Source: Pseudomonadota bacterium (GTDB lineage: Bacteria; Desulfobacterota; WTBG01; JAGOGO01). Taken from it: DNA of 56,441 nucleotides. Both the position numbers and the translations under genes were made by a program. The DNA lies in the NCBI GenBank assembly GCA_043798555.1, contig JAZDOO010000406.1:1-56441 (forward strand), written 5' to 3'. Positions 26,211 to 53,815 of the stretch are shown here, in pieces; the first letter of the stretch is position 1, and each line of letters opens with the position of its first letter. The notes beneath the pieces were generated by a model. The model saw only the letters and a program-made list of their open reading frames with translations, was not told where the DNA came from and did no database searches.

Positions 26211-26268
26211 TAGTAAAGTAAAAAAGCCGTCATTGAAAACCCTTTTGGGGTCTTTAGGAGGGATACAA

Positions 26269-34362: not shown

Positions 34363-34518
34363 TGGACCTCCTCCTTAAAAAGGTTAACTTTTACCATTTA
34401 CCATTCACGATCTTCTTACCCGTAAAAAACCAGGTAATCAGGTTGCACCACCTCCTTCTTTGCTGAATTAGTTTTACTACCGCCAACGTCCAGTTACCTA
34501 TCTTCATCATGCCTTCTT

Positions 34519-36870: not shown

Positions 36871-36891
36871 ACCTTCTCCTCCCATCAATGA

Positions 36892-37989
36892 CTAAGTGAT
36901 TTGTTTCCATTTTTCCCCTTCATTATCGCTCAGTAAAACCGTACCCAACGCCCCGATAACCACAAACTTACCATTGATTACTTTGATGTCCCTCAACCAG
37001 GAAAAGAGGCTAATCCCCTCCGGTTTAAAGAGCTCCCACGTCTTTCCGCCGTCGTTGGTTCTGATGATTGAAGCCGCATTTCCCACCGCATATCCCCGGG
37101 ACCCGGAAACGACGATGCGAAAAAGCGTCTGCTTGGTCGGGCACTCCTGTTGATTCCAGGTATTGCCGCCATCTTCGGTATGCAAAAGGATGCCATTCAG
37201 TCCCGTGATCCAGCCCTCCCGGGTATCCTTGAAGCAGATACCGAACAGGTCATCCTCTACCCCGCTCTCTTTTTTCTGCCACGTACCTCCCCCATCGCTG
37301 GTATGGAAGACATTACCTTCCTCCCCCACAATCCATCCATTTTGGGGGTCAATAAAATAAACATCATTCAAGAGCGGTTCCAGAACCGGCATCCCTTCCT
37401 CAGAAACACTCTCTTCCGCCACCTCTTCGGCGCCAGTATCAGTTTCCGTCTCTTGCAGGGCCTCTTGGTCAATAAAGAACTTCACCTCTTTTTCCGGTTC
37501 TTTTACTTTCTGGGAAATATCCTGCCAGGTTTGCCCCCCATCTTCCGTGGTAAGCAGGGAAGCAAATTTCCCCATGACAAATCCCTTTTGAGCATTGAGG
37601 AATTTCACCCTGGTCAAATGTTCCTTAATCCCGCTCTCCTGCTTTACCCAGGTTTTCCCACCGTCGGACGTATGGAGAATGATACCCTGATCCCCCACTG
37701 CCCAGCCATTGGAGGTGTCCACAAAACTGACTCCTCGCAAAGGAAGAATCGTATTCGTCGTTTGCGGAGCCCATGTCTCTCCCCCATCACTGGTCTTGAT
37801 GAGTAGGCCATAATCCCCTGAAATCCACCCGTTCTTACTGTCCGCAAAGTCAACCCCAAAGAGCTTGTGGCGGTAACCCGCTACTTGAAATGGCCTCGTT
37901 TTTGAAGGGCTTTTATCCGCACAGCCGTAAAAACCAATGCCGATAATGAAACACAGAATACCAAGAGAAAATAACTTTAATTTTTTCAT
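36892..37989 (-). CDS. BNR/Asp-box repeat (Ycf48-like beta-propeller) lipoprotein
   Basis: The lipobox is IGFYGC. S/TxDGGxTW repeats recur: TSDGGETW, TSDGGKTW, TEDGGQTW, TSDGGGTW, TEDGGNTW, TNDGGKTW. Confidence 0.8.
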   Translation of the reverse strand: MKKLKLFSLGILCFIIGIGFYGCADKSPSKTRPFQVAGYRHKLFGVDFADSKNGWISGDYGLLIKTSDGGETWAPQTTNTILPLRGVSFVDTSNGWAVGDQGIILHTSDGGKTWVKQESGIKEHLTRVKFLNAQKGFVMGKFASLLTTEDGGQTWQDISQKVKEPEKEVKFFIDQEALQETETDTGAEEVAEESVSEEGMPVLEPLLNDVYFIDPQNGWIVGEEGNVFHTSDGGGTWQKKESGVEDDLFGICFKDTREGWITGLNGILLHTEDGGNTWNQQECPTKQTLFRIVVSGSRGYAVGNAASIIRTNDGGKTWELFKPEGISLFSWLRDIKVINGKFVVIGALGTVLLSDNEGEKWKQIT

Positions 37990-38570: not shown

Positions 38571-40160
38571 ATGACGAAGATCATAAATACGCCTAAAAAA
38601 CATAGCCAGAGTAGTAATGTTCGATTGACCACCTCAACTAAGGGATTGCCTGGAGAAGCCAAACCTGGTCATGGAAGAAAGGATGATCCCTTAAAGGGCG
38701 AAGGACTCTACCGAAAACTGGTGGAAACGATGAATGACGGTCTGATTGTCGTAGACCAAAAGGGGGTAATCACTTACGTTAATAACAAATTTTGTGAAAT
38801 ATCAGGATATTCGCGAGGGGAACTTATCGATCATCCTGTAATAGATTTCTTCGAAGATTCTTCTGGAAAGATGCTCATAGAGCAAGGGCTAAGGCTTAGA
38901 AAAGGCGAGAATGTGTCTTACGAAATTACATGGTTGACAAAGGGAGGACACCGGGTTTTTTCTATCCAGTCTTCAGCACCCCTTATGGATGCAAATGGGG
39001 GCTTCAGGGGAAGTTTTGCAGTCGTTACGGATATTACGAAACAAAAAAAAGCGGAGGAAGCACTGAGGGAACGTGAGAAACATTTTCGTTCCCTCCTCCA
39101 AACAGCAGGAAGCGCAATCATTCTTCTCTCACCAGAACGTAAGATCCTCGAATTCAATAAAGAAGCAGAACGCATATACGGATATGAAAAGGAAGAGGTC
39201 TTGGGGAAAGACTATGTTGAATTGGTTTTTCCTGAAGAGGAACGAGAGGTCCAAGCAGAGATTATAGACCGAATCTTAAATGGAGAGGCCCTGAGGGGTT
39301 TTGAGAATGTAGTACGAGCGCGCGATGGAACCGAGCGGGAAATGCTCTGGAATGCTATTCCTTGGTTTGACGCTGAAGGAAGGACTATAGGTTGCATAGG
39401 AATCGGAATCGACATAACGAGGCAAAAGAAGATTGAGAAAGCACTGAGGGAATCGGAAAAGAAGCTTAGACACCTTTCATCTGAACTCCTTAATGCCCAG
39501 GAGAAAGAACGAAAGCGGATTTCTATAGAACTCCACGATGAGCTGGGACAATCTTTGACAACCCTGAAATTGCAGTTACGGGCGATTGAAACAAAATTGG
39601 GTAGGGCGCTCTACCCTTTGAAGAGAGACTGGACAGAAGCATTCCGAAGCCTTGATCAAGTCATCAAAAATACCCGTAACCTTTCTCGCGGTTTAAGTCC
39701 GATTATCCTGGAAGATCTTGGCCTCACGTCCACCCTGAAATGGCTGATAGATGACTTTAGCAGACGGTGTAATATTGAATGCTCAGTTAATCTGATAAAT
39801 CTCGATGATTTTTTTATGCCAGAAGCACAAATTGTCATTTACAGGATCTTTCAAGAATGTCTCGTAAATATTGCCAAGCATGCCAATGCCACTCAGGTAT
39901 CCATTGTAGTCAAAGATAATGGAGATAGCTTTTCTTTCTACATTAAAGACAATGGTAAGGGTTTTGAGATAGAAGAAGTTTCTCAGAGGAATACTAAGGC
40001 AACAGGAATGGGCTTTGTGGTAATGGAGGAGCGAGTAAACATGTTAAGAGGTTGCCTCGAATTAATAAGTCAGAAGGGGTTCGGCACCACGGTAAATATC
40101 AGCCTCCCCAAAATTAGAAAGGAGATTGATAATGCAACCTTATCTTTTGGTACTTGCTGA
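38571..40160 (+). CDS. Cytoplasmic dual-PAS sensor histidine kinase (HisKA_3 / NarX-DegS type)
   Basis: No TM segment. There are two PAS modules (LVETMNDGLIVVDQKGVITYVN... and LLQTAGSAIILLSPERKILEFN...), each ending in DIT.QKK.E. The H-box is ISIELHDELGQSL. The ATPase boxes are NIAKHANA, DNGKGF and GMGFVVMEER. Confidence 0.85.
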   Translation: MTKIINTPKKHSQSSNVRLTTSTKGLPGEAKPGHGRKDDPLKGEGLYRKLVETMNDGLIVVDQKGVITYVNNKFCEISGYSRGELIDHPVIDFFEDSSGKMLIEQGLRLRKGENVSYEITWLTKGGHRVFSIQSSAPLMDANGGFRGSFAVVTDITKQKKAEEALREREKHFRSLLQTAGSAIILLSPERKILEFNKEAERIYGYEKEEVLGKDYVELVFPEEEREVQAEIIDRILNGEALRGFENVVRARDGTEREMLWNAIPWFDAEGRTIGCIGIGIDITRQKKIEKALRESEKKLRHLSSELLNAQEKERKRISIELHDELGQSLTTLKLQLRAIETKLGRALYPLKRDWTEAFRSLDQVIKNTRNLSRGLSPIILEDLGLTSTLKWLIDDFSRRCNIECSVNLINLDDFFMPEAQIVIYRIFQECLVNIAKHANATQVSIVVKDNGDSFSFYIKDNGKGFEIEEVSQRNTKATGMGFVVMEERVNMLRGCLELISQKGFGTTVNISLPKIRKEIDNATLSFGTC

Positions 40161-40791
40161 CGATCACACCATGTTTCGCCAGGGAATCAAGAAAATTATC
40201 GAAACAAGGGATGACCTGAAAATAATTGGTGAAGCAAACGACGGCCTTGAACTTCTCGAACTTTTGAAAAAAGTGAAACCCAACCTGGTTATCCTTGACA
40301 TTTCTATGCCGAACCTTAGAGGCTTAGAAGCGACCCGTGAGATTAAGGTGCGCTATCCTGAAATTAAGATACTCGTACTAACCATGCATAAAAGCAGAGC
40401 GTACCTTCACCATGCGATTTTGGAGGGTGTTGAAGGGTATCTTTTAAAAGAAGATGCCGACACAGAATTTTTTGCCGCAATAAATGCCATTCGACAGGGG
40501 AAAACGTATATTTCACATCTCTTCTCATGTGAATTAATGTCCCTTTTGGCGACAGGGCCTTATGGAAGCGGAGACCAATCTTGCTCTGATCCCCTAACAG
40601 TCAGGGAAAGACAAGTAGTGAAGCTTATTGCAGAAGGAAAATCAAACAAGGAAATTGCCCAATTGCTTTTCGTCAGTGTACGAACGGTTGAACACCATCG
40701 AACCAACGCAATGAGAAAGTTAAATCTCAAGAAAACTGCTGATCTTGTGAAGTACGCCATCCAGGAGGGTTACATTGCCGTTACCACCTAA
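40132..40791 (+). CDS. NarL/FixJ (LuxR-type HTH) response regulator
   Basis: The receiver is LLVLADDH...LVILDISMP. The C-terminus is LTVRERQVVKLIAEGKSNKEIAQLLFVSVRTVEHHRTNAMRKL. The ATG at 40132 sits behind GGAG. It overlaps the kinase 3' end by 29 nt. Confidence 0.85.
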   Translation: MQPYLLVLADDHTMFRQGIKKIIETRDDLKIIGEANDGLELLELLKKVKPNLVILDISMPNLRGLEATREIKVRYPEIKILVLTMHKSRAYLHHAILEGVEGYLLKEDADTEFFAAINAIRQGKTYISHLFSCELMSLLATGPYGSGDQSCSDPLTVRERQVVKLIAEGKSNKEIAQLLFVSVRTVEHHRTNAMRKLNLKKTADLVKYAIQEGYIAVTT

Positions 40792-40824: not shown

Positions 40825-40867
40825 TTTAGGTAGTTTTTCCTATCCCATTTTAGGTAGTATATCCTAT
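40825..40867 (+). repeat. Tandem direct repeat TTTAGGTAGT(T/A)T(T/A)TCCTAT, period 24 bp
   Basis: Copies at 40825..40843 and 40849..40867, identical at 17 of 19 positions. It starts 34 nt after the response-regulator stop and lies upstream of the carboxylase operon. The reverse complement contains TACCTAA, close to the NarL heptamer TACYYMT. Confidence 0.45.
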
Positions 40868-41069: not shown

Positions 41070-43058
41070 ATGGGGTATACGATAGATGTAGATACTGGCG
41101 GAACCTGCACCGACGGACTTTTTAGCGATGGGAAAAACTTAATTTGGATCAAAGTTGACACTACCCCTCACGATTTGACGATTGCTTTTAACGAGTGCCT
41201 GGAACAGGGGTCTAAAAAGCTCGGCTTTAGTAACCCATCAGAATTTCTCGATCACGTTAATATTATCCGCTGGTCAAGCACAATCGCAATCAATGCCATT
41301 GCCGAAAAGACTGGTCCGAAAGTGGGTCTGTTTGTCTCAAAGGGGTATGAGGAAACCCTTTATACTAGCACCACCTCACCAGCTATCGGTTATCTCGTTG
41401 ATCGGTCCAATATCGCCGGATTACCTCAACCAGTGAATGTTCCTGAATTTTTAAAAATGCTTAAGGAACTATTAGCAAAGGGAGTTCGAAGAATAGTCAT
41501 TTCTCTTAAAAACAGCTTTTACAATAACCGGAATGAGTTAGAAGCCAAAAGTATCATTTCCGAACAATATCCAGAACATTATTTGGGTAGTGTGCCAATT
41601 TTGACCGGAGAGGACATATGTAAGCATCCCGACGATATGACAAGAACCCATGCTGCACTCCTAAACACTTATGTGCATGGACCGATGGCTACCTCGTTAT
41701 TTAGGGAGGAAGACTATTTAAGAAAGAAGGGGTACACTCGGCCTCTCCTCATAGGTCACATTGACGGTGGAGTTGCCAGAGTATCAAAAACCAAGCCTAT
41801 AGACACGATTGAATCGGGACCTATTTTTGGCATCCACGGAAGTGTCTATTTTTCAAAACTCTACGGCTTGGATAGAGTAGTCACCTTGGACGTTGGTGGA
41901 ACCACAAGCAAAACTGGCTGGATTCTTGATGGCAGGCCTATTACTTCTACTGAAAACAGCATTTTTGGCATTCCTTTGAAAATTCCACTGGTTAGCCTGA
42001 GCAGCATTGCTTTAGGAGGAGGCACTGTTGCATTCCTAGAAAGCAAAAAGATAGTCCTTGGTCCCCGGAGTATGGGAGCATACCCCGGTCCTGCTTGCTA
42101 TAATCTGGGGGGCACAGAAGCGACGTTAACAGACGCTTTTGCCATTCTTGGGTACCTGAATCCGGACTACTTTGCTGGTGGAACTAAAAAGCTCGATTCG
42201 GGAAAGGCTGAGTCTGTGGTGCGGGAACGGATTGCCAACCCCCTCAATATAACGCTAGAAAAGTCCGCACAGTTGATTGCCAATGAGTCCTTCGACAAGG
42301 TAGCAAAACTTATCAAAACGAATACCACGCATAGTAGAGAATTACAAGACTACGTGTTATTTGCATTTGGTGGAAACGGTGGACTTTTTGCGTGCTTCGT
42401 GGCTGAAAAACTTGGAGTCGGTAAGGTGTATACCTTTTTTATTGGCCCCGTTTTTAGTGCCTTTGGATCGTCAGCCGCTGAAATTGCTCATAGTTATGAA
42501 TATGCACCATTTTTAGCATTAGCTGAATATAGCAGGTTACAGGAAATCATTGAAAATTTGAGAAACCGTGCTATACGGGATATGGAAGGCGAGGGGCTAA
42601 ACCTGGAAGATGTTAAACTTAGCCTCTCTTTTCTCATCAGTGACGGGATAAACTCCCCTCTTACGATAGAGTCTGAATATCTGAACTTTAACAGCAAGGA
42701 TGACGAGAAAAAAGTCAGAGAACTATTTAATAACAAAGCTCCTTCTAATTACAGCCGTGACAAACTGATCATAGAATTATTAAAAGTAACAGCCAAGCAT
42801 CCCTCCCCCACCCCTGAGCTAACAATTTTTCCTTTGGGAATTGCTGATTCAAAAGACGCCCTAAAAGAAAAGAGAGATGTTTATTGGAGTAACGGTTATT
42901 TTGCAACAAATGTTTATAACTGGGATTTGCTTCACGCTGGCAATGTAGTCAAAGGGCCGGCGATTATCGAAAGTGCTCATACAAATTATGTAATTCCACC
43001 ACTTTGGGAGTTGACGGTGGACGAGCACAAAAATGGAATCATGCAAAAATGGAGGTAG
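41070..43058 (+). CDS. Hydantoinase/oxoprolinase A (HyuA)-family subunit, divergent copy (acetophenone-carboxylase alpha-prime-like position)
   Basis: 662 aa. The N-terminus is TIDVDTGGTCTDGLF, a degenerate version of the DxGGTFTD phosphate-1 motif. The second ASKHA motif is LDVGGTTSK. Confidence 0.75.
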   Translation: MGYTIDVDTGGTCTDGLFSDGKNLIWIKVDTTPHDLTIAFNECLEQGSKKLGFSNPSEFLDHVNIIRWSSTIAINAIAEKTGPKVGLFVSKGYEETLYTSTTSPAIGYLVDRSNIAGLPQPVNVPEFLKMLKELLAKGVRRIVISLKNSFYNNRNELEAKSIISEQYPEHYLGSVPILTGEDICKHPDDMTRTHAALLNTYVHGPMATSLFREEDYLRKKGYTRPLLIGHIDGGVARVSKTKPIDTIESGPIFGIHGSVYFSKLYGLDRVVTLDVGGTTSKTGWILDGRPITSTENSIFGIPLKIPLVSLSSIALGGGTVAFLESKKIVLGPRSMGAYPGPACYNLGGTEATLTDAFAILGYLNPDYFAGGTKKLDSGKAESVVRERIANPLNITLEKSAQLIANESFDKVAKLIKTNTTHSRELQDYVLFAFGGNGGLFACFVAEKLGVGKVYTFFIGPVFSAFGSSAAEIAHSYEYAPFLALAEYSRLQEIIENLRNRAIRDMEGEGLNLEDVKLSLSFLISDGINSPLTIESEYLNFNSKDDEKKVRELFNNKAPSNYSRDKLIIELLKVTAKHPSPTPELTIFPLGIADSKDALKEKRDVYWSNGYFATNVYNWDLLHAGNVVKGPAIIESAHTNYVIPPLWELTVDEHKNGIMQKWR

Positions 43059-43064
43059 AGAGTC

Positions 43065-43439
43065 ATGGGGGAAAGAATACAAGTAACCGAATACTTGGGC
43101 TTGGACCTCGGGGAAGACTTCTGGTTTTGCAGACAATGTAATCATAAATTAATCTCCGCTCGGGAAAACTACAAGAAGGGCTGCCTTGTATATGATCGAG
43201 ACCCAATGGACATTCATCCCCCTCTCATTGATGAAGAGATCAATTTTGCACCAGATCCTGCCTGGATTCGGATCCTGGAATTTTATTGTCCGAAGTGCGG
43301 AACCCAGATAGAAACTGAATATCTCCCACCTGGACATCCGATAACTCATGACCTTGAAATTGATATAGACCGATTAAAAGAACGGTTAAGCAATGGCGAA
43401 TACGTTATTAAAGATAAGAGGATTGAGGTAAGCGAGTGA
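43065..43439 (+). CDS. Acetone/acetophenone-carboxylase small (gamma-type) Zn-ribbon subunit
   Basis: 124 aa with two Cys pairs, CRQCNHKL and CPKCGTQIE. Its position between two HyuA genes and its size of about 14.5 kDa fit the gamma-type subunit. Confidence 0.65.
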   Translation: MGERIQVTEYLGLDLGEDFWFCRQCNHKLISARENYKKGCLVYDRDPMDIHPPLIDEEINFAPDPAWIRILEFYCPKCGTQIETEYLPPGHPITHDLEIDIDRLKERLSNGEYVIKDKRIEVSE

Positions 43440-45559
43440 ATACTTTAGATATAGATGTGGGCGGAACGTTCACCGATGCCGTTTTAAACTTCGATGGAAA
43501 GGTTATGCTTAAAAAGGTTCCAACAACCCCGTATGACCTTTCCGTATGTTTTGTCAATGTCATTGAAGAAGGGGCTAAAGAAATTAACATCACGCTTGAA
43601 AAATTTCTGCCAAGATTAGATGTTATAAGGTATTCCACGACCATTGCTATGAATAGGCTTCTGGAAAGGAAAGGGCCCGCTTTGGGTCTCATTACTACCG
43701 AAGGGCATGAAGATGCGATCCTTATTGGGAAAGGGGCACAGTGGACAGATGGAAAGAGGGTTACGGAAAGGAGGAACCTCGCAGTCCAAGAAAAACCAGT
43801 CCCATTGATTCCCCGGGATATGATAGTAGGAGTCAAAGAAAGAGTAGATTCATTTGGGAAGGTGCTCCGTCCTCTGGATGAAAATGACGTTCGAAGGAAA
43901 GTCTACTATTTGATTGACAAAGGAACCCGAGGCTTTGTTGTTTCCCTCCTTTGGTCTCATATAAATCCCATCCATGAAAAAAGGGTAAAAAAAATCATTA
44001 GAGAAGAATACAAAGAATACTACTTAGGTTATTTGCCAATAGTGTTAGCTCATGAGGTCATAGGTCGATCGGGAGAATACCAAAGAACCATGACCGCTAT
44101 CCTCGATGCTTATCTCCACCGGGCGATGCAGATTGAGCTTTCAGCGATGTGGGATAAATTGCGAGAATATGGTTACGCCGGTCCTTTCATGATGGTTCAT
44201 AATTCTGGGGGAATGGCTGAAGTTTTTAAGACTGATGCTATTCGAACGTACAATGCAGGGCCGGTTTCTGGATTGATAGGATCTTATTACTTGGGCCAAG
44301 AATTAGGGTACCGGAATATAATTGGCACTGATGTGGGTGGAACCAGTTTTGATATCGGTTTGGTTGTCGAGCAGGACGTGAGGAATTATGAATTCAGGCC
44401 AATCATTGATACCTGGATGGTTGGAATAACGATGCTTCAAACTTTTTCAATAGGTGCAGGTGGTGGTTCTATCGCTCGGATTAACGAATCAGCGGGTAAT
44501 ATTTTGGAAGTGGGGCCCCAAAGTGCGGGCTCTTACCCTGGCCCAGTTTCCTATAATCTTGGAGGGTCAGAACCAACAGTAACAGACGCAGACCTGGTTC
44601 TTGGATATATCAATCCGGATTTCTATTACGGGGGAAGGATGCAATTGCATCCAGAGTTGGCTCTGGATGCAATTAAAGAAAAAATCGCTACCCCTTTAGG
44701 GATCGATGTAATCGAAGCCGCATACCTTATAAAAAAGGTAGTAGATAGCAATATGGCATCCGCAATTCGGAAAGAAATCAACTTGCGAGGTTATGACCCT
44801 AAAGAGTTCATCCTTTTCGCCTTTGGGGGTGGAGGGCCGACCCACGTTGCCGGCTATTTGCAAGATATTCCACTGGCTATTATTTTCCCCTTTTCGCCGG
44901 TATTTTCTGCTATAGGTTCTTCCTTTATGGATATCGTTCATATATACGAGTTCTCCCGTCGCTTTATGCTTATGGAACCCATCACAAGAAAATTCGTTGG
45001 AGATTACACGGAATTTAATAACGTAGTGAGAGCGTTAATAGATAGAGCAAAAAAAGAGGTCGAAGGAGAAGGACTCGCAGCAGCTCAGGTTATTTTTAAG
45101 GTTGAATTAGATATGCTTTATGGAGGCCAGGCGCAACGAAAAAGGTCGCTTTCTCCGGTAATATTTATTGAGACCGAGAAAGATGCGGAAGCGATTTATT
45201 ATGAATTTGAAAAGGAGTTTAGCGAAACATTCAGTCCCTTGGTCGTTCATCCTGAGGGCGGAGTGTACATAGAAAACATAGTCCTAAGAGCAACTATCCC
45301 TACAAAAAAAACAAAATTCTCAAAACATCCTGTAGAAAAAGAAGATCCTTCACTTGCCCTAAAAGGTACAAGAAGGGTTTACTGGGGAGACAGGGTCTTC
45401 ACTGAGACAAAAATCTTTGCTCAAGAACTGCTCCGCCCCGGAAACGTAGTGAACGGGCCAGCTATTATCGAGGCCGACTATACAACTATTTCGGTTCCAC
45501 CAGAATTTCTCTTTAGGATAGATGAGTTTAGTTTTGGAAGACTTAATCGAAAATCATAA
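43436..45559 (+). CDS. Hydantoinase/oxoprolinase A (HyuA)-family ATPase subunit
   Basis: 707 aa. Canonical LDIDVGGTFTDAVL and GTDVGGTSFD. The GTG start overlaps the preceding stop (GTGA, 43436..43439). Confidence 0.8.
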   Translation: MNTLDIDVGGTFTDAVLNFDGKVMLKKVPTTPYDLSVCFVNVIEEGAKEINITLEKFLPRLDVIRYSTTIAMNRLLERKGPALGLITTEGHEDAILIGKGAQWTDGKRVTERRNLAVQEKPVPLIPRDMIVGVKERVDSFGKVLRPLDENDVRRKVYYLIDKGTRGFVVSLLWSHINPIHEKRVKKIIREEYKEYYLGYLPIVLAHEVIGRSGEYQRTMTAILDAYLHRAMQIELSAMWDKLREYGYAGPFMMVHNSGGMAEVFKTDAIRTYNAGPVSGLIGSYYLGQELGYRNIIGTDVGGTSFDIGLVVEQDVRNYEFRPIIDTWMVGITMLQTFSIGAGGGSIARINESAGNILEVGPQSAGSYPGPVSYNLGGSEPTVTDADLVLGYINPDFYYGGRMQLHPELALDAIKEKIATPLGIDVIEAAYLIKKVVDSNMASAIRKEINLRGYDPKEFILFAFGGGGPTHVAGYLQDIPLAIIFPFSPVFSAIGSSFMDIVHIYEFSRRFMLMEPITRKFVGDYTEFNNVVRALIDRAKKEVEGEGLAAAQVIFKVELDMLYGGQAQRKRSLSPVIFIETEKDAEAIYYEFEKEFSETFSPLVVHPEGGVYIENIVLRATIPTKKTKFSKHPVEKEDPSLALKGTRRVYWGDRVFTETKIFAQELLRPGNVVNGPAIIEADYTTISVPPEFLFRIDEFSFGRLNRKS

Positions 45560-45571
45560 TGAGGAGCGAAG

Positions 45572-47635
45572 ATGTCCATACCAACCGCTGAGCAAAAACT
45601 CCAATGGTTGAAGCCAGCTCCCTTGGCAAAAAACGAGTCGGAGTGCGTAGATAAGCTTGCAACGGGAGAGTTTGAAGTTGGGTTTGAAAGAACCAATAAT
45701 ATCCTGGATGAGGCTATGGAAGTCTTTGAACGATCTGCTCGAACATCTATGGGAATTGCGGGCGATTCCATGGTAGCCCTTTTTACCGCAAGTGGAGATT
45801 TAGCCAATGCGAGTTGTGGCACTTATCTTCATGCAGTTATTCAACCTGTATTAATCAAGTTTATTCTTAACAACTATGCTGAGAATCCTGGAATCAACGA
45901 TGGAGATATTTGGTTCACTAATGACGCACTCTATGGAGGAATTCACAACCCCGATCAGGTATGTGTAATGCCCATCTTTTACAAAGACGAGCTTATCGGG
46001 TGGGCAGGAGCTGCTAATCACACAACCGAGACCGGAGCGATAGAGCCTGGTGGGATGCCAATTACCGCAACAAGCAGGTTTGCAGAGGGAATGAATTTCC
46101 CTCCTATTAAAATAGGAGAAAATTTTAGAATTAAGAACGATTTTTTAGAATTGCTATCAGCCTTTGCAATTCGAGCTCCTCAGATGGTGATCATAGATCT
46201 TAAAGCAAGAGCCTCTGCTGCAGATAGAGTCAGAAAAAGAATCGTGGAGATGGCAGAAGATAAGGGCGGTGATTATGTAAAAGGTTTGCTAAGGAAAATG
46301 TTGATGGCGGCGGAAAATGGGGCGAGGAAAAGAATTCGTTCATTTCCTGATGGGAAGTACAGGTGTGTGAATTTCGCTGACAGTGTTGGTTTTGAGTCGG
46401 GTTTACTGCGTACGGCCTACTTAACTTTGACGAAAGAAGATGACCAGATTACCCTGGATTTTTCAGGAACCTCCCCTGAAACTCCCTATTCATACAATGC
46501 CCATGTTCAGGCTGTCGTTGGGCATATTTCAAACTTTGTTTTTGAGTATGTTTTCCATGACCTGCCTATAAGTAATGCCACCTTTGCCTCTATTAATTTC
46601 ATTTTCCCTAAGGGAAGTTGTTTAAATCCAGACATAAGGGCAGCCACCAGTAATTCAGTAATGATCTCAACCGGCGTCATGAGTAGCTTGCATAACTGTT
46701 TTAGCAAAATGATGATGGTGACCAACGAGCATTGGAAGCAAGTATCTGCCTCACAAGGTAATGCAGGGAATGCGATGGTTCTTTCCGGGCTTTCTCAGTG
46801 GAAACTCCCCTTTGCTGACATGTTGGCCTATTCACTAAACAGCGAAGGCCAAGGCGCAAGGGCCACGAAGGATGGCGTCAATGCCTTTGGTTTTCCCTGG
46901 TGTGTATTTGGGAGGACACCAGATGTTGAGGAAATGGAAAATGAATTTCCCATAACCATTCCGCTCTCCAATCATTGGAAGGATTCCTGTGGGCACGGAA
47001 AATATCGGGGTGGTGTGGGGACCATACAAGTCTGGGTGGCACACCATACGCAACGGGTCTATTTTATGGCTATAGCTGACAATAGTAAAATCCAGACACC
47101 GCAACCCCTTTTTGGCGGGTATGCCCCCGGTACAGTTCCTGGAATTTCTGCAACTAACACAGATTTTTATGAGAAAATGTCTTCCGGATCTCCTGATTTA
47201 ACCTGGGATTTCCGAGAATTAATTAAAAATAAAACTATCAAAGGTCAATGGTCCTATGAATACTTTGCGAGAGCCACCAGACCATTCAGCGAGGGGGATA
47301 TTATAACCTTTGGATTTGCTACCGGTGGTTCTGGTTATGGCGACCCATTGGACAGGGATCCTGAACTGGTCATAAAGGATCTAAGGGATGAGGTCATTTC
47401 TCACTGGTCAGCCAAAAATATTTACAAAGTCGCCTACGATGAAAAGCGGCTTAAAGTCAATCAGGAAGAAACGAGGAAGCTTAGGGAAGAAGAAAAGAAG
47501 GCCCGGCTTAAAAGAGGAAAGCCTTACAGCGAATTTGGAAAGGAATGGGTGAAAAAGAAACCACCTGAAGCGATCCTAAAGTTTTATGGTTCATGGCCTG
47601 ATGCCAAGGTACTGACCCACATCTTTAGGCCTTGA
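45572..47635 (+). CDS. Hydantoinase B/oxoprolinase (HyuB)-family subunit
   Basis: 687 aa. DGDIWFTNDALYGGIHNPDQ and GGSGYGDPLDRDPELV are typical HyuB blocks. RBS GAGGAG. Confidence 0.8.
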   Translation: MSIPTAEQKLQWLKPAPLAKNESECVDKLATGEFEVGFERTNNILDEAMEVFERSARTSMGIAGDSMVALFTASGDLANASCGTYLHAVIQPVLIKFILNNYAENPGINDGDIWFTNDALYGGIHNPDQVCVMPIFYKDELIGWAGAANHTTETGAIEPGGMPITATSRFAEGMNFPPIKIGENFRIKNDFLELLSAFAIRAPQMVIIDLKARASAADRVRKRIVEMAEDKGGDYVKGLLRKMLMAAENGARKRIRSFPDGKYRCVNFADSVGFESGLLRTAYLTLTKEDDQITLDFSGTSPETPYSYNAHVQAVVGHISNFVFEYVFHDLPISNATFASINFIFPKGSCLNPDIRAATSNSVMISTGVMSSLHNCFSKMMMVTNEHWKQVSASQGNAGNAMVLSGLSQWKLPFADMLAYSLNSEGQGARATKDGVNAFGFPWCVFGRTPDVEEMENEFPITIPLSNHWKDSCGHGKYRGGVGTIQVWVAHHTQRVYFMAIADNSKIQTPQPLFGGYAPGTVPGISATNTDFYEKMSSGSPDLTWDFRELIKNKTIKGQWSYEYFARATRPFSEGDIITFGFATGGSGYGDPLDRDPELVIKDLRDEVISHWSAKNIYKVAYDEKRLKVNQEETRKLREEEKKARLKRGKPYSEFGKEWVKKKPPEAILKFYGSWPDAKVLTHIFRP

Positions 47636-47645
47636 GAGTACCTCA

Positions 47646-48599
47646 ATGTCTCGGGTTAAGAACGAGTGTCTCAGGAAAGGTAAGCTTTTTGTCCCGATAA
47701 TCTTTTCGTTCGGTGCGGGGCTAGAAAACTTACCTTTGAAGGAATTCTTGGAGGACCCAACAAAGATTTCCAATTCCCTCCGAACGATCCATAACTATTT
47801 TCGCGTTGATGGTGTGGTTTGCGCTGATAAGACAATCTTACCTGAGGCCCTCGGATGTCATGTTGACTGGAGCAAATCCCCCCCCTTAATCCAACCCTCG
47901 TCAGCGAAAATAGATGAATTGGGTACCTGTGCGACGAACCTTTTTGAAAAAGGACGGGTGAAGACCGCTGTAGAAGTGACGCGAAGGCTCAGCATTCTTT
48001 TACCCGAAGCTTTCTTGATGGGTTTAGTTACAGGGCCATTGACACTGGCTGGCCAACTCACAGGACTCTCAGAAGCTGAGATTTTTGGTCATCGAGATCT
48101 CTTATCAATAACCAGTAATGCAATACTTACCTATTCTAAAGGTCTTTGCGACGCAGGTATTGACCTCCTTCTTTTTTCAGAAAGAGAGCTTCCGGGTTTA
48201 GACGAACAATCCCTAAAACAGTTGCGCCGATGTTATTCCCCGATCTGGAATACGGTTAGGTTCTATGAGGCTTTCCCTCTCCTGATGGTCGAAAACTTCT
48301 CACCGGAAGATGTCAACCTCATTAGTAAGGTTGTGGACGACCTAATCTTACCTGGTGGCTACGTTCCCGATAACTTGCAAAAGTTTAAGAGACTTTCGTT
48401 CGCTTTACCCGTTTCATTGCTTGAAAATGAGCCCGAAGACATTGAATCTTTTCTCGTAAAAAGCAGCATTGTCGCTGCCTTGAATTCTTCGACTCTCTTT
48501 CTATTGACAACCGACTCTGAGGTCCCCGGAAGCATTCATAAAGAATTTTTGATCAGAGGAGTTCAATCGATCAGGGACTTCCTGAAAAAAGGACCATAG
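47646..48599 (+). CDS. Uroporphyrinogen-decarboxylase (URO-D/MtaA)-fold family protein
   Basis: 317 aa. FLEDPTKISNSLRTIHNYFRVDGVVCADKTILPEALGCHVDWSKSPPLI follows the URO-D family N-terminal pattern (accessory helix, D..., ..EA.G). It starts 10 nt after the HyuB stop. Confidence 0.5.
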   Translation: MSRVKNECLRKGKLFVPIIFSFGAGLENLPLKEFLEDPTKISNSLRTIHNYFRVDGVVCADKTILPEALGCHVDWSKSPPLIQPSSAKIDELGTCATNLFEKGRVKTAVEVTRRLSILLPEAFLMGLVTGPLTLAGQLTGLSEAEIFGHRDLLSITSNAILTYSKGLCDAGIDLLLFSERELPGLDEQSLKQLRRCYSPIWNTVRFYEAFPLLMVENFSPEDVNLISKVVDDLILPGGYVPDNLQKFKRLSFALPVSLLENEPEDIESFLVKSSIVAALNSSTLFLLTTDSEVPGSIHKEFLIRGVQSIRDFLKKGP

Positions 48600-48773: not shown

Positions 48774-50120
48774 ATGAATATTACTTTGGAGAAGGCTACG
48801 GAAACCTTTAAGAAAAAGTTCAAAAAATCAGGGGGACTATGTGAGAGGGGGAGCAAATGGATTCCTGGAGGGTACAGCAGACATAGTCTTACCTTTGGGC
48901 CGCACGCTATCTATGTGGATCATGGGGAAGGCCAGTTCATTTACACGGTGGACGGGCATCGATTGCTTGACTTTCACAATAATTTTAGTTGCAGTGTCCT
49001 TGGACATAACCACCCCAAAATTAGACAGGCCCTGCTGGAATTAGTTCCGAGGGGGTTTTCTTTCGGCAACCCGATGGAACATGAGCACCGCTTAGCAGAG
49101 ATAATTTGTGAGCGGATCGAGTCGGTGGAGAAGGTTATATTTTCGTGTTCTGCAAGTGAGTCATGTCTCAGCGCGATTCGAATAGCCAGGGGAAATACCG
49201 GGAAAGACAAGATTGCTAAATTCGAGGGAGGTTATCATGGTATGGGTGATGAGTTTATGTTGTCACTCCATCCTTACCCGTACTTTTTCAGGGGTCCGGC
49301 AACTCGACCGATAGGATGGCCAAATACTGCGGGGATTCCATCGCATATTCAGCAAAATGTAGTTATTTTACCCCAGAACGATCTCGAAAGTTGTGAGCGG
49401 ATCCTGAAGGATGATGCTAAAGACTTAGCCTGCGTTATAATCGAGCTCCAGACAAGTGCGGGTGGTGCAATGGTGATGGAAAAAGAATTCGTGCATGGGC
49501 TTCGAGCAATTACTCAAGAGTTAGGTATCCTCCTGATTATAGATGAGACTGTGACCTTACGTACCTTCTATCACGGCATGCAAGGCTTCTATGGAGTCAA
49601 GCCCGATTTAACGGTGATGGGGAAAGTAATAGGGGGCGGTTTACCAATAGGGGCGGTAGGGGGACAGGAGAAATATTTCCATATGCACGAAACCGGGAAA
49701 GTCTATCACTCAGGTACTCATCATGGCCATCCCCTTGCAACTGCCGCTGGTATTGCCTGTATGGAAGTACTGGATGAGGTGACGTGTAATCGTATCAATA
49801 AAATGGGAGACCGACTTGCGCATGAACTCAACACCTGGGCTACTGAGAATACTTATCCATTTTATGTAATCGGTCATGGAGGTCATTTAGGATACGAATT
49901 TACCGATAAGCCAGGAAGAGTCTACCGGTCATGCCGTGATATGTTGGAGTATTCTAATGAAGAGCGTATGGCGACGTTTGCCTTTGAAATGGCAAATCGT
50001 GATATCTTCCCAATGTATCGAGGACTGATTGCTCTGTCAGAGCCAATGAATGATAATGATATTGACCTTTTTATCAATACCAGCAAGGAGCTTGTAGAAG
50101 GTATTCTTGCCGCTTCGTGA
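48774..50120 (+). CDS. Class III PLP aminotransferase, glutamate-1-semialdehyde aminomutase-like
   Basis: 448 aa. Motifs are LLDFHNNFSCSVLGHNHP and LIIDETVTLR, with the Schiff-base Lys in MGKVIGGGLPIGAVGG. RBS AAGGAGG. Confidence 0.8.
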   Translation: MNITLEKATETFKKKFKKSGGLCERGSKWIPGGYSRHSLTFGPHAIYVDHGEGQFIYTVDGHRLLDFHNNFSCSVLGHNHPKIRQALLELVPRGFSFGNPMEHEHRLAEIICERIESVEKVIFSCSASESCLSAIRIARGNTGKDKIAKFEGGYHGMGDEFMLSLHPYPYFFRGPATRPIGWPNTAGIPSHIQQNVVILPQNDLESCERILKDDAKDLACVIIELQTSAGGAMVMEKEFVHGLRAITQELGILLIIDETVTLRTFYHGMQGFYGVKPDLTVMGKVIGGGLPIGAVGGQEKYFHMHETGKVYHSGTHHGHPLATAAGIACMEVLDEVTCNRINKMGDRLAHELNTWATENTYPFYVIGHGGHLGYEFTDKPGRVYRSCRDMLEYSNEERMATFAFEMANRDIFPMYRGLIALSEPMNDNDIDLFINTSKELVEGILAAS

Positions 50121-50273
50121 GTTACATGCCAAGGGCTGATGAAAATTAGTTAAAGAAGGTAGTAAACCAAGATTTGCCTTTTGGTCTGAAGAAGGCTATA
50201 ATTTTGAAAAAAGGAAGCCTAATCAAGGTGCCGAGCCGAGTGATTAAGCTTGGGCATAAAAGGGAGGAAGAGC

Positions 50274-51602
50274 ATGCAAGAATATGGAAAATACTGGAAC
50301 GAACGCCTGGAAAGGTTGTCGCTGGAAGAATTCCATGAGGTCCAAGAAAAGGCGCTCTTGAGACAGCTTAAGTACGTAGGGGAGAATTCTGCTTTTTATC
50401 AGAGGAAATTCCGTAAAGCTGGACTTAAATTAGGAGACGTGAGAAGACTTGAAGACTTATCCAAGCTTCCCTTCACCGAGAAAAGTGAACTTCGTGACAG
50501 TCAAATGGAGAGTCCTCCTTTGGGTACTCATATTAGCTGTCCTATGAGCAAGGTAAAGAGGATATATTCCACGAGTGGGACTACTGGCAGGCCAACTTTT
50601 ATAGGCCTCACCGAGCATGACATAGATATGTGGCGTGAGACCGCTTGCAGGTCATTTTGGACTTGTGGACTCCGTGCTGATAGCATTGTGCCGCTCGTCG
50701 TGGCCCCCTTTTTAATAGCCGCCTCATACGCAGACGCTCTGCAAAAAATCGGTATGGTCGTTCCTATAGGAGTGGGAGCGACTGAAAGACTTATTGGGAC
50801 CTTTCAGTATATTGGGGCCAACGCCCTTTTGTCTACTTCCTCTTTCCCCTTACATTTTGCTGACTCCCTTGAGAAAAGAGGCATCGAACCAAAAAGCCTG
50901 GGGATTAAAATAATAGTGGCTGGAGGTGAGCCTGGGGCAGCTATTCCATCGGTCCGTCAGAAAGTTGAAGATATCTTCGGCTGCATATTCCTCGAAACGA
51001 TGGGAAACGGGGACATGTGTGGCCAAATGTGGGCGGAATGCGAATATAAACAGGGAATGCACTTCATTGCCCAAGGAATTGTTCACCCAGAAATAGTCGA
51101 CCCTGATACGGGCGAGGTGTTAGATATAAGGGAGGGAACTAAGGGCGAGTTAGTCTACACTGCTCTTGAGCGAGAGTGTATTCCCTTGGTTCGCTTTAGG
51201 ACGCGGGATCATATCGAAGTCACGCAGACAACGTGTAAGTGTGGGCGAACAGGATTTGGCATACGTGTTTTCGGGAGAACGGATGACATGATTATTGTTC
51301 AAGGAGTTAATGTATATCCTGCGGCAGTTCGGGATATAGTAGCAAGTTTAGCTCCTCGAACAACTGGTATTATCGAGGTTCAGTTATACGCTCCTCCTCC
51401 AAAAGGATGGGAGCCACCGATTCACATAAAGGTAGAATACGGGGAAGAGTCAGGGGATTTGGGTTCTCTCAAGAAGGAGACTGAATCTTTGATAAGGGAA
51501 AATCTAATCTTTCGTGCTGATGTTGAGCTAGTACCGGCAGGGAGCCTGCCGAGATACGAATACAAAGCTAAGTTAGTAAGAAAGCTGTATGAGAAAAAAT
51601 AG
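50274..51602 (+). CDS. Phenylacetate-CoA ligase (PaaK)-family CoA ligase, second copy
   Basis: LERLSLEEFHEVQEKALLRQL...FYQRKF is the N-terminal pattern and STSGTTGRPTF the nucleotide loop. The start is set at the ATG at 50274, behind GGGAGGAAG. Confidence 0.75.
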   Translation: MQEYGKYWNERLERLSLEEFHEVQEKALLRQLKYVGENSAFYQRKFRKAGLKLGDVRRLEDLSKLPFTEKSELRDSQMESPPLGTHISCPMSKVKRIYSTSGTTGRPTFIGLTEHDIDMWRETACRSFWTCGLRADSIVPLVVAPFLIAASYADALQKIGMVVPIGVGATERLIGTFQYIGANALLSTSSFPLHFADSLEKRGIEPKSLGIKIIVAGGEPGAAIPSVRQKVEDIFGCIFLETMGNGDMCGQMWAECEYKQGMHFIAQGIVHPEIVDPDTGEVLDIREGTKGELVYTALERECIPLVRFRTRDHIEVTQTTCKCGRTGFGIRVFGRTDDMIIVQGVNVYPAAVRDIVASLAPRTTGIIEVQLYAPPPKGWEPPIHIKVEYGEESGDLGSLKKETESLIRENLIFRADVELVPAGSLPRYEYKAKLVRKLYEKK

Positions 51603-51727: not shown

Positions 51728-53815
51728 ATGGGCAATAAAGGATATGCGGTTGGAGTAGATATCGGAGGGACATTCACAGATTTAGTCGCGATAGACGAAG
51801 AAGGAAATAGAACGGTCATTAAGACACCCAGTACCCCAGAAGATCCTTCTCTCGGAATGGTTAACGCACTCAAATTGGCAGCCGAAAGTTTAGAGATAGA
51901 TTTCAGTGAATTCTTAGGGAAGGTTTCGAGGATCTGCCATGGAACAACGGTCACGACCAATGCGGTCATTACTCGTTCTGGAGCCAAAATGGGCATGCTT
52001 ACCACAAAAGGGGTGAGAGACACGATAGAAGTCCGCCGAGGAATGAGAGAGCTCGAATACTTATATGATTACACATACTCCCAGCCTGAGCCATTATGTC
52101 CAAGAAATTTGAGAATCCCCATCGAAGAGAGGGTACAAGCTGATGGTTCAGTATATATTCCATTGAACGAGGATCAGGTTCGTAATGGAATAAAAAAATT
52201 TAGAAAAGAAGGGGTAGAGGCAATAGCAATCTGTTTTCTGTGGTCCTTTAGAAATCCAAGACATGAGCTGCGGGCAGCGGAGATATGTCGAGAGGAATTT
52301 CCAGAAGCTTACCTAAGTCTTTCCCATGAAGTTGCTCCAATCTTAGGAGAGTATCTCCGATTTCAGTCCACAACGATAAATGGGTACGTAGGTCCTATCA
52401 TCAAAAGATATATGACCTCTATGCGAAAAACACTGAATGATGCCGGGTATAAGGGGGCACTCCTCATTGTAACTTCCAGTGGAGGGGTGATGAGTCCTGA
52501 GGCAATTATGGAAAAAGCTGGCGTTACCCTGACGTCAGGTCCGGCAACTGGTCCGGTCGCTGGCATCTGGTATGGAGATCTTTACGGCATTGGCAGTTTA
52601 ATAACCATGGACATGGGCGGTACTAGCTTTGATACTTCTCTGGTCAAGAATCGGGAGATCTCAATTAGAGCTGGTCAAGTAGTGGCAGGAGTTTACCATA
52701 TTGGCTTACCCACAGTAGATGTTCATGCTATCGGTGCTGGCGGAGGAACTGTCGCCTGGTTGGATGAGGCAGGGGGAATCCATGTGGGGCCTCAAAGTGC
52801 CGGAGCTGATCCGGGGCCGGCTTGCTATATGAAAGGGGGTACAGAACCTACCGTCACCGATGCCAATTTAGTGCTGGGACGGTTAAACCCCGATTATTTT
52901 GTAGGTGGAAAGATCAAACTAAACAAAGACGCTTCAATAAAGGCCATTAAAAAAATTGCCGAGCCTAAAGGCATGACAGTGGAAGAAATTGCGAGGGCAA
53001 TTATCACTATTGCTGTTGTGAATATGACTGATGCTACCGAGGTCATAACAATTCGGCGAGGTGAAAATCCAAAAGATTACGGATTGCTTGTTGGTGGAGG
53101 AGCAGGCCCAGGCCATGCAGCTCAACTTGCTAAGACATTAGAGATTAAAAAGGTCATCATCCCTAGAGAATCTTCCATTTTCTGTGCCATGGGAGGAATT
53201 ATCTCGGATATTAGACATGATTATATTACCAGTTTAGAAACGCCCACTGAGGAGTTAGACTGGCGAAAAATAAATAACATAGTGAAAAGCATGAAAGCTG
53301 ACGCAAATAAAATGTTGACTGAAGAGAATGTCCCCATAGAAGAACGGTCGTATAGATTCTCTGCGGATATGAAATATATCGGGCAGTATCACGAAATCGA
53401 TGTCCAATGGCCTGATAAACAGAACTTCGCATATTCAGAAAAGGACATACCTGAAATTGTCGACCGGTTTCATGAAAGGCATGAGACCCTCTATGCCCAC
53501 CGCGATGAGGAAGGAAAAACATTTACTTCAAATCTTAAGTTAGCTGCTTTCGGTCACGTATCAAAAATAACGGCCAGGTTGATGCCTATTGGTGATAAAG
53601 ATACCAGTAAATACCAAAAAGGTACCCGCGATGTTTGGTTTGAAGAAACAGGCTTTACCCCCACACCAATCTATGATGGTGATGCCATGTTGCCAGGAGT
53701 GAAAGTTAAAGGACCTTGTGTCATTGAGCAAAGGACAACTACTATCGTTGTTCCACCTGAACACAGTGTTGAGGTTAGTGAATATGGAGATTTTATGATG
53801 AACGTACCAGTTTAG
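51728..53815 (+). CDS. Hydantoinase/oxoprolinase A (HyuA)-family ATPase subunit (second module)
   Basis: 695 aa. Motifs are VGVDIGGTFTDLVA and TMDMGGTSFD. Confidence 0.8.
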   Translation: MGNKGYAVGVDIGGTFTDLVAIDEEGNRTVIKTPSTPEDPSLGMVNALKLAAESLEIDFSEFLGKVSRICHGTTVTTNAVITRSGAKMGMLTTKGVRDTIEVRRGMRELEYLYDYTYSQPEPLCPRNLRIPIEERVQADGSVYIPLNEDQVRNGIKKFRKEGVEAIAICFLWSFRNPRHELRAAEICREEFPEAYLSLSHEVAPILGEYLRFQSTTINGYVGPIIKRYMTSMRKTLNDAGYKGALLIVTSSGGVMSPEAIMEKAGVTLTSGPATGPVAGIWYGDLYGIGSLITMDMGGTSFDTSLVKNREISIRAGQVVAGVYHIGLPTVDVHAIGAGGGTVAWLDEAGGIHVGPQSAGADPGPACYMKGGTEPTVTDANLVLGRLNPDYFVGGKIKLNKDASIKAIKKIAEPKGMTVEEIARAIITIAVVNMTDATEVITIRRGENPKDYGLLVGGGAGPGHAAQLAKTLEIKKVIIPRESSIFCAMGGIISDIRHDYITSLETPTEELDWRKINNIVKSMKADANKMLTEENVPIEERSYRFSADMKYIGQYHEIDVQWPDKQNFAYSEKDIPEIVDRFHERHETLYAHRDEEGKTFTSNLKLAAFGHVSKITARLMPIGDKDTSKYQKGTRDVWFEETGFTPTPIYDGDAMLPGVKVKGPCVIEQRTTTIVVPPEHSVEVSEYGDFMMNVPV

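Follow-up and report, generated by a model that had tools for sequence, protein, structure and literature searches.

A predicted Apc-type ketone carboxylase cluster with adjoining regulator, transaminase and ligase genes in an uncharacterized lineage of the Apc family

The contig JAZDOO010000406.1 (GenBank assembly GCA_043798555.1; Pseudomonadota bacterium, GTDB lineage Desulfobacterota, WTBG01, JAGOGO01) was analyzed as one stretch of 56,441 nt, termed the window below; its forward strand carries five adjacent genes (41070..48599) that, judged by their sequences, almost certainly encode a complete Apc-type ATP-dependent carboxylase, the enzyme class of the acetophenone carboxylase ApcABCDE of Aromatoleum aromaticum. 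The locus belongs to a known and widespread kind of gene cluster, here in an uncharacterized lineage; its unusual part is the arrangement of the accessory genes. From homology, subunit architecture, conserved residues and synteny, we infer the activity, substrate, regulation and transaminase coupling of a five-subunit, biotin-independent ketone carboxylase that would operate together with an acyl-coenzyme A (acyl-CoA) ligase, a regulator pair, and a transaminase feeding the same metabolite pool; taken as a whole, this explanation appears likely.

The five-subunit carboxylase

The gene block consists of an ApcA-type subunit (alpha-prime; 41070..43058; 662 aa, 72.8 kDa), an ApcB-type zinc-ribbon subunit (gamma; 43065..43439; 124 aa, 14.6 kDa), an ApcC-type subunit (alpha; 43436..45559; 707 aa, 79.2 kDa), an ApcD-type subunit (beta, the HyuB-type core; 45572..47635; 687 aa, 76.4 kDa), and a highly diverged ApcE-type subunit (epsilon, a URO-D-like TIM barrel; 47646..48599; 317 aa, 35.1 kDa); masses are calculated, the ApcC-type gene starts with GTG, and the other four start with ATG. 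The protein lengths and the spacings of 6, -4, 12, and 10 nt given in an earlier note on this DNA were reproduced exactly by an open reading frame scan of the forward strand, and the GTGA overlap that it had described between the apcB stop and the apcC start is visible in the raw sequence at 43436-43439. At the apcA/apcB junction, the raw sequence reads TAG (43056-43058), agagtc, and ATG (43065); the starts of apcB and apcC are each preceded by a Shine-Dalgarno-like GGAGG/GAGGT run. This five-gene arrangement is far beyond chance. The apc gene order that the earlier note had given for Aromatoleum is right, and its subunit masses (70, 15, 87, 75, and 34 kDa) are approximate; the published values are 70, 15, 80, 75, and 32 kDa.

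Family assignments agree in all five positions. In Pfam, proteins 1 and 3 match Hydant_A_N, Hydantoinase_A, and Hydant_A_C (E-values of 1e-62 to 1e-20), protein 2 matches Acetone_carb_G (E = 3.8e-37), the gamma-subunit family in which the earlier note had expected it, protein 4 matches Hydantoinase_B (E = 1.5e-86), and protein 5 matches URO-D (E = 2.4e-9). The top NCBIfam models are, in gene order, ApcA, ApcB, ApcC, ApcD, and ApcE; these equivalog models (NF042960 and NF042974-NF042977) represent acetophenone carboxylase in the strict sense, and the proteins score 608.6, 193.8, 1058.8, 1067.7, and 61 bits against cut-offs of 1250, 250, 1500, 1500, and 450 bits. The best PDB chains of the core subunits all come from the Aromatoleum core complex: 5l9w_b for the ApcA-like protein (538.8 bits), 5l9w_C for the ApcB-like protein (175 bits, followed by acetone carboxylase with 42 bits), 5l9w_B for the ApcC-like protein (989.6 bits, followed by acetone carboxylase with 351 bits), and 5l9w_A for the ApcD-like protein (976.8 bits, compared to 187 bits for acetone carboxylase and approximately 115 bits for hydantoinases). 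Across PDB and NCBIfam, the scores for acetone carboxylase (Acx), caprolactamase (CapAB), oxoprolinase, and hydantoinase (Hyd) are three- to eightfold lower than the Apc scores; the prediction of an Apc-type carboxylase, and of subunits that group with carboxylases rather than with oxoprolinase or N-methylhydantoinase, is thus borne out by the scores. Identities to Aromatoleum ApcA, ApcB, ApcC, ApcD, and ApcE, with the reference sequences taken from PDB alignments (5L9W for the core complex, 9FOU for ApcE) here and in the pocket comparison below, are 47, 64, 60, 59, and 24%.

The structural study of Apc names explicit features that separate Apc, Acx, and Hyd (Weidenweber et al., 2017; PMC5214803). 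The gene order apcA-B-C-D(-E), or alpha-prime, gamma, alpha, beta, epsilon, is found in the window and in most related loci. Grouping by scores places the proteins on the Apc branch, and a neighbor-joining tree places the window inside the Apc family, outside the Aromatoleum clade. Acx chains are longer and Hyd chains are shorter than those of Apc (PMC5214803); the beta, alpha, and gamma chains of the window (687, 707, and 124 aa) fit the Apc lengths of approximately 685, 730, and 128 aa, and the alpha-prime chain has 662 aa vs. 658 aa. The zinc-site cysteines of the gamma subunit (Cys22, Cys25, Cys75, and Cys78) are all kept at identical positions in the ApcB-like protein. The ApcD-like protein matches Aromatoleum ApcD in 30 of the 35 residues of eight glycine-rich polyproline-II segments, and the metal ligands Asp65, His123, Asp126, and His148 of the latter correspond to D65, H125, D128, and H150; these ligands are invariant in an alignment of 18 family sequences.

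The PHOSPHATE 1, PHOSPHATE 2, and ADENOSINE motifs of ASKHA-type ATP binding occur in both the ApcC-like and the ApcA-like protein. The R/KERiDsxG fingerprint is present as KERVDSFG at residue 134 of the ApcC-like protein and is restricted to this subunit, as required; the ApcA-like protein has the ATP motifs DTGGTCTD, DVGGTT, and GAYPGP and lacks KERxDxxG. The ApcA-like protein keeps all three residues proposed for the bicarbonate site, with Glu, Asp, and Lys at the positions of E248, D274, and K281; the alpha-prime subunit is regarded as an ATP/ADP-binding kinase module that tentatively activates bicarbonate (PMC5214803). The motifs DVGGTFTDA in protein 3 and DIGGTFTDL in a further copy at 51728 were found as the earlier note had given them, and so was DTGGTCTDG in protein 1; the last motif is not degenerate, as had been thought, but has the normal ApcA form (DTGGTMTDA in A. 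aromaticum). Since both HyuA-type subunits keep their ATP motifs, the suggested pairing of a catalytic with a non-catalytic HyuA subunit has to be given up; it is not what the structural study proposes (PMC5214803).

The fifth protein is the most distant from its counterpart. Its sequence matches the NCBIfam model (E = 1e-16) and 9fou_A (53.8 bits; E = 1.7e-13), the latter with 24% identity in an alignment of 205 aa; among the Apc subunits, ApcE shows by far the greatest divergence (PMC5214803). An AlphaFold2 model built from 35 homologs (predicted local distance difference test, pLDDT, of 91.5) has 9fou ApcE as its top Foldseek match in PDB (E = 7e-15; TM 0.69-0.77), and uroporphyrinogen decarboxylases and MtaA-type methyltransferases rank below it; at the level of the predicted structure, the ApcE fold is thereby confirmed. 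The position of the gene 3' of apcD, where an epsilon gene belongs, is kept in relatives. Within the ApcE-like family, an alignment of 35 sequences contains no invariant Cys or His, and thus an MtaA-type zinc site is lacking; the invariant polar residues of the URO-D-like barrel are E27, T39, K40, D55, R114, N202, and Y207. It is intriguing that a carboxylase should depend on a subunit with a decarboxylase fold.

Judged by the homologous enzyme of Aromatoleum, ApcC would phosphorylate the enolized ketone and ApcA would phosphorylate bicarbonate, with two ATP converted to two ADP overall; ApcD and ApcB would provide the structural core, and ApcE would act as a loosely bound fifth subunit needed for turnover or the coupled reaction. 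The predicted product is a beta-keto acid. The earlier note had left a phenolic substrate open besides a ketone; this option finds no support, as the chemistry of the family is ketone carboxylation.

Distribution and substrate pocket of the family

Relatives of the ApcD type, with identities of 57-81%, are abundant: they were found in at least 475 of the species-representative genomes of GTDB, in Desulfobacterota, Marinimicrobia, Gammaproteobacteria, Actinomycetota, Chloroflexota, Bacillota, and Dormibacterota. In a tblastn synteny survey of 80 genome loci drawn from these genomes (Aromatoleum not included; L numbers here and below denote genome loci), the order apcA-B-C-D was found almost everywhere, usually followed by apcE and a PaaK-like ligase gene. 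Five desulfobacterotal loci (L006, L009, L010, L020, and L024) carry an extra ApcC/ApcD-like pair, with 43-50% identity, a few kb upstream of the apc cluster.

The seven positions of the Apc alpha subunit that are proposed to line the acetophenone pocket were compared in 73 sequences (the window, Aromatoleum, and 71 related loci). The window has M72, Y272, N273, P276, I324, Q335, and T336, where Aromatoleum has L81, F281, N282, P285, I333, Q344, and T345; five of the seven residues are the same, and with Leu81Met and Phe281Tyr the window differs from the pocket of acetophenone carboxylase in the strict sense. The LFNPIQT signature is found in 28 sequences, that of Aromatoleum and others from proteobacterial genomes, and the near variants LFNPVQT and LFNPLQT in one sequence each. 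All other lineages are covered by Met/Tyr signatures, MYNPIQT (as in the window), MYNPIQS, MYSPLQT, and rarer variants, with mixed exceptions in L029 (Leu/Tyr) and L076 (Met/Phe). In a neighbor-joining tree of ApcC and ApcD, the Leu/Phe sequences fall together in one derived proteobacterial clade, with Aromatoleum among them; the window and its closest relative, L001 (81% ApcD identity), are sister to a clade of Desulfobacterota, Marinimicrobia, and Arenicellales.

Only a single member of the Apc branch had been characterized when the structure was published (PMC5214803), and no characterized Apc outside Aromatoleum was found in the searchable literature; therefore, "Apc-type ketone carboxylase" is a safe designation, and "acetophenone carboxylase" is not. 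Since two covarying pocket residues differ, the substrate is possibly different from acetophenone; a methyl or methylene ketone of the aryl (acetophenone-like) kind is the most likely substrate, with acetophenone itself not proven because the enzyme belongs to the uncharacterized Met/Tyr-pocket lineages. Metagenomic studies routinely take apc homologs as markers of anaerobic ethylbenzene or acetophenone degradation. Most of the surveyed Apc-type clusters belong to Met/Tyr-pocket lineages with varied accessory genes, a transaminase here and short-chain dehydrogenases elsewhere; this different pocket signature and the variety of accessory genes leave the substrates of most Apc-type clusters open.

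Regulators, ligase and transaminase

Directly upstream of the carboxylase genes and on the same strand, the position by which alone it is tied to the operon, lies the gene of a sensor histidine kinase (38571..40160; two PAS domains, HisKA_3, and HATPase_c in Pfam and NCBIfam), a candidate operon sensor analogous to AdiS. It is followed on the forward strand by the gene of a NarL/LuxR-family response regulator (40126..40791; receiver and GerE helix-turn-helix domains in Pfam; uncertain TTG start), with MctR and NarL-type regulators as best NCBIfam matches; NarL-type regulators also occur near apcA in several related loci, and the regulator of the window is a candidate activator of the apc-like operon. 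A repeat search of the 279-nt intergenic region between the regulator gene and apcA found two copies of a 19-nt direct repeat, TTTAGGTAGTnTnTCCTAT (40825..40867; 24 nt from start to start), which may be a regulator binding site or operator. The kinase and regulator pair probably induces the operon.

Downstream, a PaaK-family acyl-CoA ligase (50250..51602, forward strand) is the positional counterpart of benzoylacetate-CoA ligase (Bal); NCBIfam PaaK models give 230-242 bits, under their cut-offs, and the PaaK structure 4r1l gives 204 bits. Seven loci of the nearest clades (L004, L006, L008, L010, L011, L020, and L025) have orthologs of it with 56-62% identity 3' of apcE, in most cases immediately after it, and ligase orthologs follow apcD/apcE in L044, L063, L065, and L066; in Aromatoleum-type loci, the counterpart follows at 33-37% identity. 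As in the apcABCDE-bal operon, the ligase would convert the beta-keto acid to its CoA thioester for thiolysis. In Aromatoleum, this operon adjoins the two-component genes adiRS (PMC4729919); with a two-component system upstream, a PaaK-like ligase downstream, and a surrounding aromatic-catabolism island, the window resembles adiRS-apcABCDE-bal, and the genomic context is not "very different," as the earlier note had put it.

Other genes have entered such clusters elsewhere. Locus L090 (8081-9758) contains two short-chain dehydrogenase genes between apcD and apcE, followed by the ligase and a LIV-type ATP-binding cassette transporter; transporters of this type are likewise found after the ligase in L089, L091, and L092. 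Short-chain dehydrogenases of this type make acetophenone from 1-phenylethanol. The two genes inside the L090 operon suggest that apc operons take up genes whose products generate the substrate.

In the window, a class-III aminotransferase gene of the beta/gamma-amino-acid omega-transaminase type (48774..50120, forward strand; Aminotran_3 in Pfam) lies between apcE and the ligase gene. A terminator scan found no terminator-like site between apcE and this gene, which is probably co-transcribed with apcA-E; in scans for promoters and terminators, hits were no more numerous than in shuffled sequence, and the operon boundaries are thus tentative. An identification as HemL/GSAM was considered and rejected: the protein reaches 287 bits in NCBIfam, where the HemL cut-off is 527, and its active site has motifs of the StoTA type, not the GSAM type. 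In PDB, the protein scores 242.9 bits with 6K8H and 246 bits with genuine GSAMs; 6K8H is the omega-transaminase StoTA of Sphaerobacter thermophilus, active on beta- and gamma-amino acids (PMC10589169). The alignment to 6K8H is gap-free over the N-terminal motif region, where both proteins share Arg36 (PGGxxR), the proposed carboxylate binder of StoTA (PMC10589169), and Asn70 (DFxNN), whereas GSAMs carry PGGVNSPVRAF and SWGP in these places and need a gap to align.

Close relatives of the aminotransferase, at 62-87% identity, occur in eight different contexts, in six of which the gene lies directly beside ketone-carboxylase-type genes. It follows apcE in the window, precedes apcA in L042 and L094, and precedes an apcD-type gene in L086; in L093 and L084, it stands behind a small cluster of another kind (HydA/HydB/gamma), after the gamma gene, and is itself followed by the ligase, CapA, and CapB; in L095, such a small cluster has aminotransferase genes on both sides and is accompanied by an ApcE-like gene and a ligase gene; in L085 and L096, no carboxylase gene is within reach. 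No linkage of a transaminase to Apc, and no accessory-gene arrangement like the present one, is reported in the searchable literature.

The small clusters (L093 1-3680, L084 67-3629, and L095 5613-9900) encode a HydA of approximately 698 aa, a HydB of 622-632 aa, and an Acetone_carb_G protein of 92-99 aa; they are 28-35% identical to ApcC/ApcD, have much shorter chains than acetone carboxylase, and are joined in L095 by an ApcE-like URO-D protein. In L093 and L084, the small cluster replaces apcABCDE ahead of the block of aminotransferase, ligase, and CapAB genes. By sequence, it looks like an uncharacterized ketone-carboxylase-like type. The occurrence of the same aminotransferase-ligase-lactamase block behind a different carboxylase module suggests that the carboxylase modules are interchangeable parts of one route.

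The transaminase most likely feeds the same metabolite pool as Apc, and two routes can be envisaged. A beta-amino acid would be deaminated to a beta-keto acid, which would decarboxylate spontaneously to a ketone that Apc recaptures; or an amino compound would be deaminated directly to the ketone. Transamination of beta-phenylalanine yields benzoylacetate, which decarboxylates spontaneously to acetophenone, and acetophenone accumulates in cultures unable to use it (PMC6150868); benzoylacetate is at the same time the Apc product and the Bal substrate. The case for a functional coupling of transaminase and carboxylase is about evenly balanced, and a specific role in beta-amino-acid salvage is doubtful, although conceivable. 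Should the coupling prove real, bacteria would have a means of saving the carbon otherwise lost when beta-keto acids from beta-amino-acid deamination decarboxylate spontaneously, and biocatalysis would gain a natural transaminase/carboxylase/ligase cascade between ketones, beta-keto acids, and beta-amino acids.

Several observations weigh against the overall explanation of carboxylase, ligase, regulator pair, and transaminase as one functional unit. All five carboxylase proteins score under the NCBIfam equivalog cut-offs, the ApcE-like protein is only 24% identical to Aromatoleum ApcE, and the window lineage is far from the sole characterized Apc in the neighbor-joining tree, with differences at positions 81 and 281 (L81M and F281Y) that covary across the family. 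The aminotransferase gene occurs in only one of the 80 surveyed ApcD loci, so that the coupling would hold for a minority of clusters only. The interval from the transaminase gene to the ligase gene contains a promoter-like and a terminator-like site, although such sites are no commoner than in shuffled sequence; the lactamase-like pair downstream could be the sole partner of the transaminase; and no thiolase, ethylbenzene dehydrogenase, or 1-phenylethanol dehydrogenase gene was found on the contig.

Different pathways can be drawn around the same genes. It is a tentative possibility that the Apc-type carboxylase is a module of an undescribed amino-compound catabolic route and not an ethylbenzene/acetophenone enzyme: the StoTA-like transaminase would yield a labile beta-keto acid or ketone from an amino acid that is perhaps supplied by the ATP-dependent lactamase, the carboxylase would capture the ketone as a beta-keto acid, and the PaaK-type ligase would commit this acid to CoA-dependent thiolysis. 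A plain orthologous acetophenone carboxylase, which converts acetophenone from ethylbenzene or 1-phenylethanol to benzoylacetate next to unrelated transaminase and lactamase-like genes, appears rather unlikely. The subunit set, order, and motifs shared with Aromatoleum, the Bal-like ligase, the two-component system, the aromatic-catabolism island, and the five identical pocket residues fit such an ortholog; yet the scores under the equivalog cut-offs, the separate lineage with its covarying Met/Tyr pocket, and the absence of ebd and ped genes from the contig do not, and the recurrent linkage of the transaminase to ketone-carboxylase-type genes, in independent arrangements, is hard to explain by chance.

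The lactamase-like genes bring in a further possibility. The CapA-like (51728-53815) and CapB-like (53845-55626) genes, on the forward strand, encode a two-subunit pair resembling ATP-dependent lactamases and hydantoinases; the two-subunit hydAB architecture fits this pair, and the NCBIfam scores (659.8 bits for CapA and 369.6 bits for CapB) are both far under the caprolactamase cut-offs of 1000. The entire series of apcA-E, aminotransferase, ligase, and CapAB-like genes could represent one lactam or amino-acid pathway, in which the CapAB-like pair would open a lactam to an amino acid at the expense of ATP, the aminotransferase would produce a keto acid or ketone, Apc would carboxylate it in alpha position, and the ligase would form the CoA ester (for example, from a gamma-lactam via a 4-amino acid and a 4-oxo acid to a 3-oxo-dicarboxylate). 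The block of aminotransferase, ligase, CapA, and CapB is kept in L093 and L084 behind their different carboxylase-like module, with identities to the window of 87, 83, 75, and 77%; caprolactamase and omega-aminotransferase are paired in a known route (PMC6061476); and StoTA, an equally close match of the aminotransferase, accepts 4-aminopentanoate as well as beta-amino acids (PMC10589169). However, the CapAB-like genes are unlinked to Apc clusters elsewhere among the 80 surveyed loci, a transcription boundary possibly precedes the ligase, and the route would cost many ATP; we regard it as unlikely.

The generic Pfam families Hydantoinase_A and Hydantoinase_B and the NCBI annotation "hydantoinase B/oxoprolinase family" could suggest, in place of a carboxylase, an ATP-dependent hydrolase of the hydantoinase, oxoprolinase, or lactamase kind; but hydantoinases have two subunits and lack the gamma, alpha-prime, and epsilon subunits (PMC5214803) that are all present in the five-gene module, the caprolactamase, oxoprolinase, and N-methylhydantoinase scores are far lower, and the lengths fit Apc, which makes a hydrolase very improbable. 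An acetone carboxylase, suggested by the Pfam name of the small subunit's family ("Acetone carboxylase gamma"), can be dismissed on its defining features: low scores in all three comparable subunits, longer chains, three subunits, and a gene order with alpha-prime and epsilon that is specific for Apc.

The surrounding contig and comparison with known systems

Profile searches identify the contig as an anaerobic aromatic-catabolism island with phenylphosphate-synthase-like genes, a UbiD carboxylase, a second PaaK-like ligase, and molybdoenzymes. On the reverse strand, the cluster at 13975-25938 resembles an anaerobic phenol- or aniline-type activation system; it includes PpsA-like (21166-23091, passing the NCBIfam PRK08296 models) and PpsB-like (20082-21152) genes, a second phosphoenolpyruvate-utilizer protein (13975-15624), the PaaK-like ligase (18261-19661), a cytoplasmic molybdenum enzyme of the bisPGD type (15820-17910), and the UbiD-family carboxylase (24502-25938). 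A LysR regulator gene lies at 26176-27246. A link of the five-gene module to the hydroxyacetophenone/acetovanillone pathway through the phenylphosphate-synthase-like kinase was considered and dropped, since that pathway uses a biotin-dependent carboxylase (PMC9618137) and the kinase genes lie on the opposite strand at a distance of more than 17 kb.

Also on the reverse strand, a molybdopterin oxidoreductase gene (9360-11553) appears to be split into overlapping open reading frames of 408, 229, and 211 aa, the first of which holds only the N-terminal half of the Molybdopterin domain; a frameshift, decay to a pseudogene, or faulty assembly may account for the break. The island also contains two adjacent genes of lactonase-like proteins with a metallo-beta-lactamase fold (11744-13659, reverse strand), with weak matches to AiiA and 4-pyridoxolactonase. 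Just upstream of the regulators, a DUF1329/DUF1302/MMPL-RND/BNR (Ycf48-like) cluster (31391-37989, reverse strand) may represent an uptake or export system for a hydrophobic substrate; DUF1329, DUF1302-like, and MMPL genes accompany the aminotransferase and carboxylase genes in L095 (13808-19830), and DUF1329 also occurs in L042 (at approximately 669).

Among known systems, ApcABCDE of Aromatoleum aromaticum EbN1 is closest: it agrees with the window in its five subunit types and their order, is similar in subunit sizes, and shares all signature motifs, and its genes likewise have a PaaK-type ligase downstream, an adjacent two-component system, and an anaerobic aromatic island around them; the likeness to AdiRS and Bal is one of position. 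The differences lie in sequence (identities of only 47-64% for the core subunits and 24% for ApcE), in Met72/Tyr272 in place of Leu81/Phe281, in the ligase (only approximately 35% identical to those of Aromatoleum-type loci), and in the gene neighborhood: in contrast to Aromatoleum, the window has no ebd or ped genes on its contig, has a transaminase gene between apcE and the ligase, and has a caprolactamase-like pair after it.

The acetone carboxylases AcxABC of Xanthobacter autotrophicus and Aromatoleum aromaticum (5SVB, 5M45) belong to the same hydantoinase/ketone-carboxylase superfamily; they are ATP-dependent and biotin-independent, and share the zinc-ribbon gamma subunit and the metal-ligand motif of the HyuB-type subunit with the window module, but they have three subunits with longer chains (approximately 776, 717, and 168 aa), lack alpha-prime and epsilon, place the gamma gene after the two large genes, and score three- to fivefold lower than Apc (187, 351, and 42 bits). 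CapAB, 5-oxoprolinase, and N-methylhydantoinase (6YRA, 7HK5) have the HyuA/HyuB fold and ATP-dependent carbonyl activation in common with the module; they are, however, two-subunit hydrolases, and score much lower than Apc for the five-gene module. The transaminases StoTA (6K8H), VpAT (4AO9), and MesAT (2YKU), of which the latter two are beta-phenylalanine aminotransferases, fall into the same class-III GSAM-like subgroup as the window aminotransferase; the likeness is only moderate (243, 194, and 186 bits), with the catalytic Lys and Thr317 equivalents of StoTA also kept in the window protein. None of the three is described beside a ketone carboxylase, unlike the aminotransferase gene that follows apcE here.

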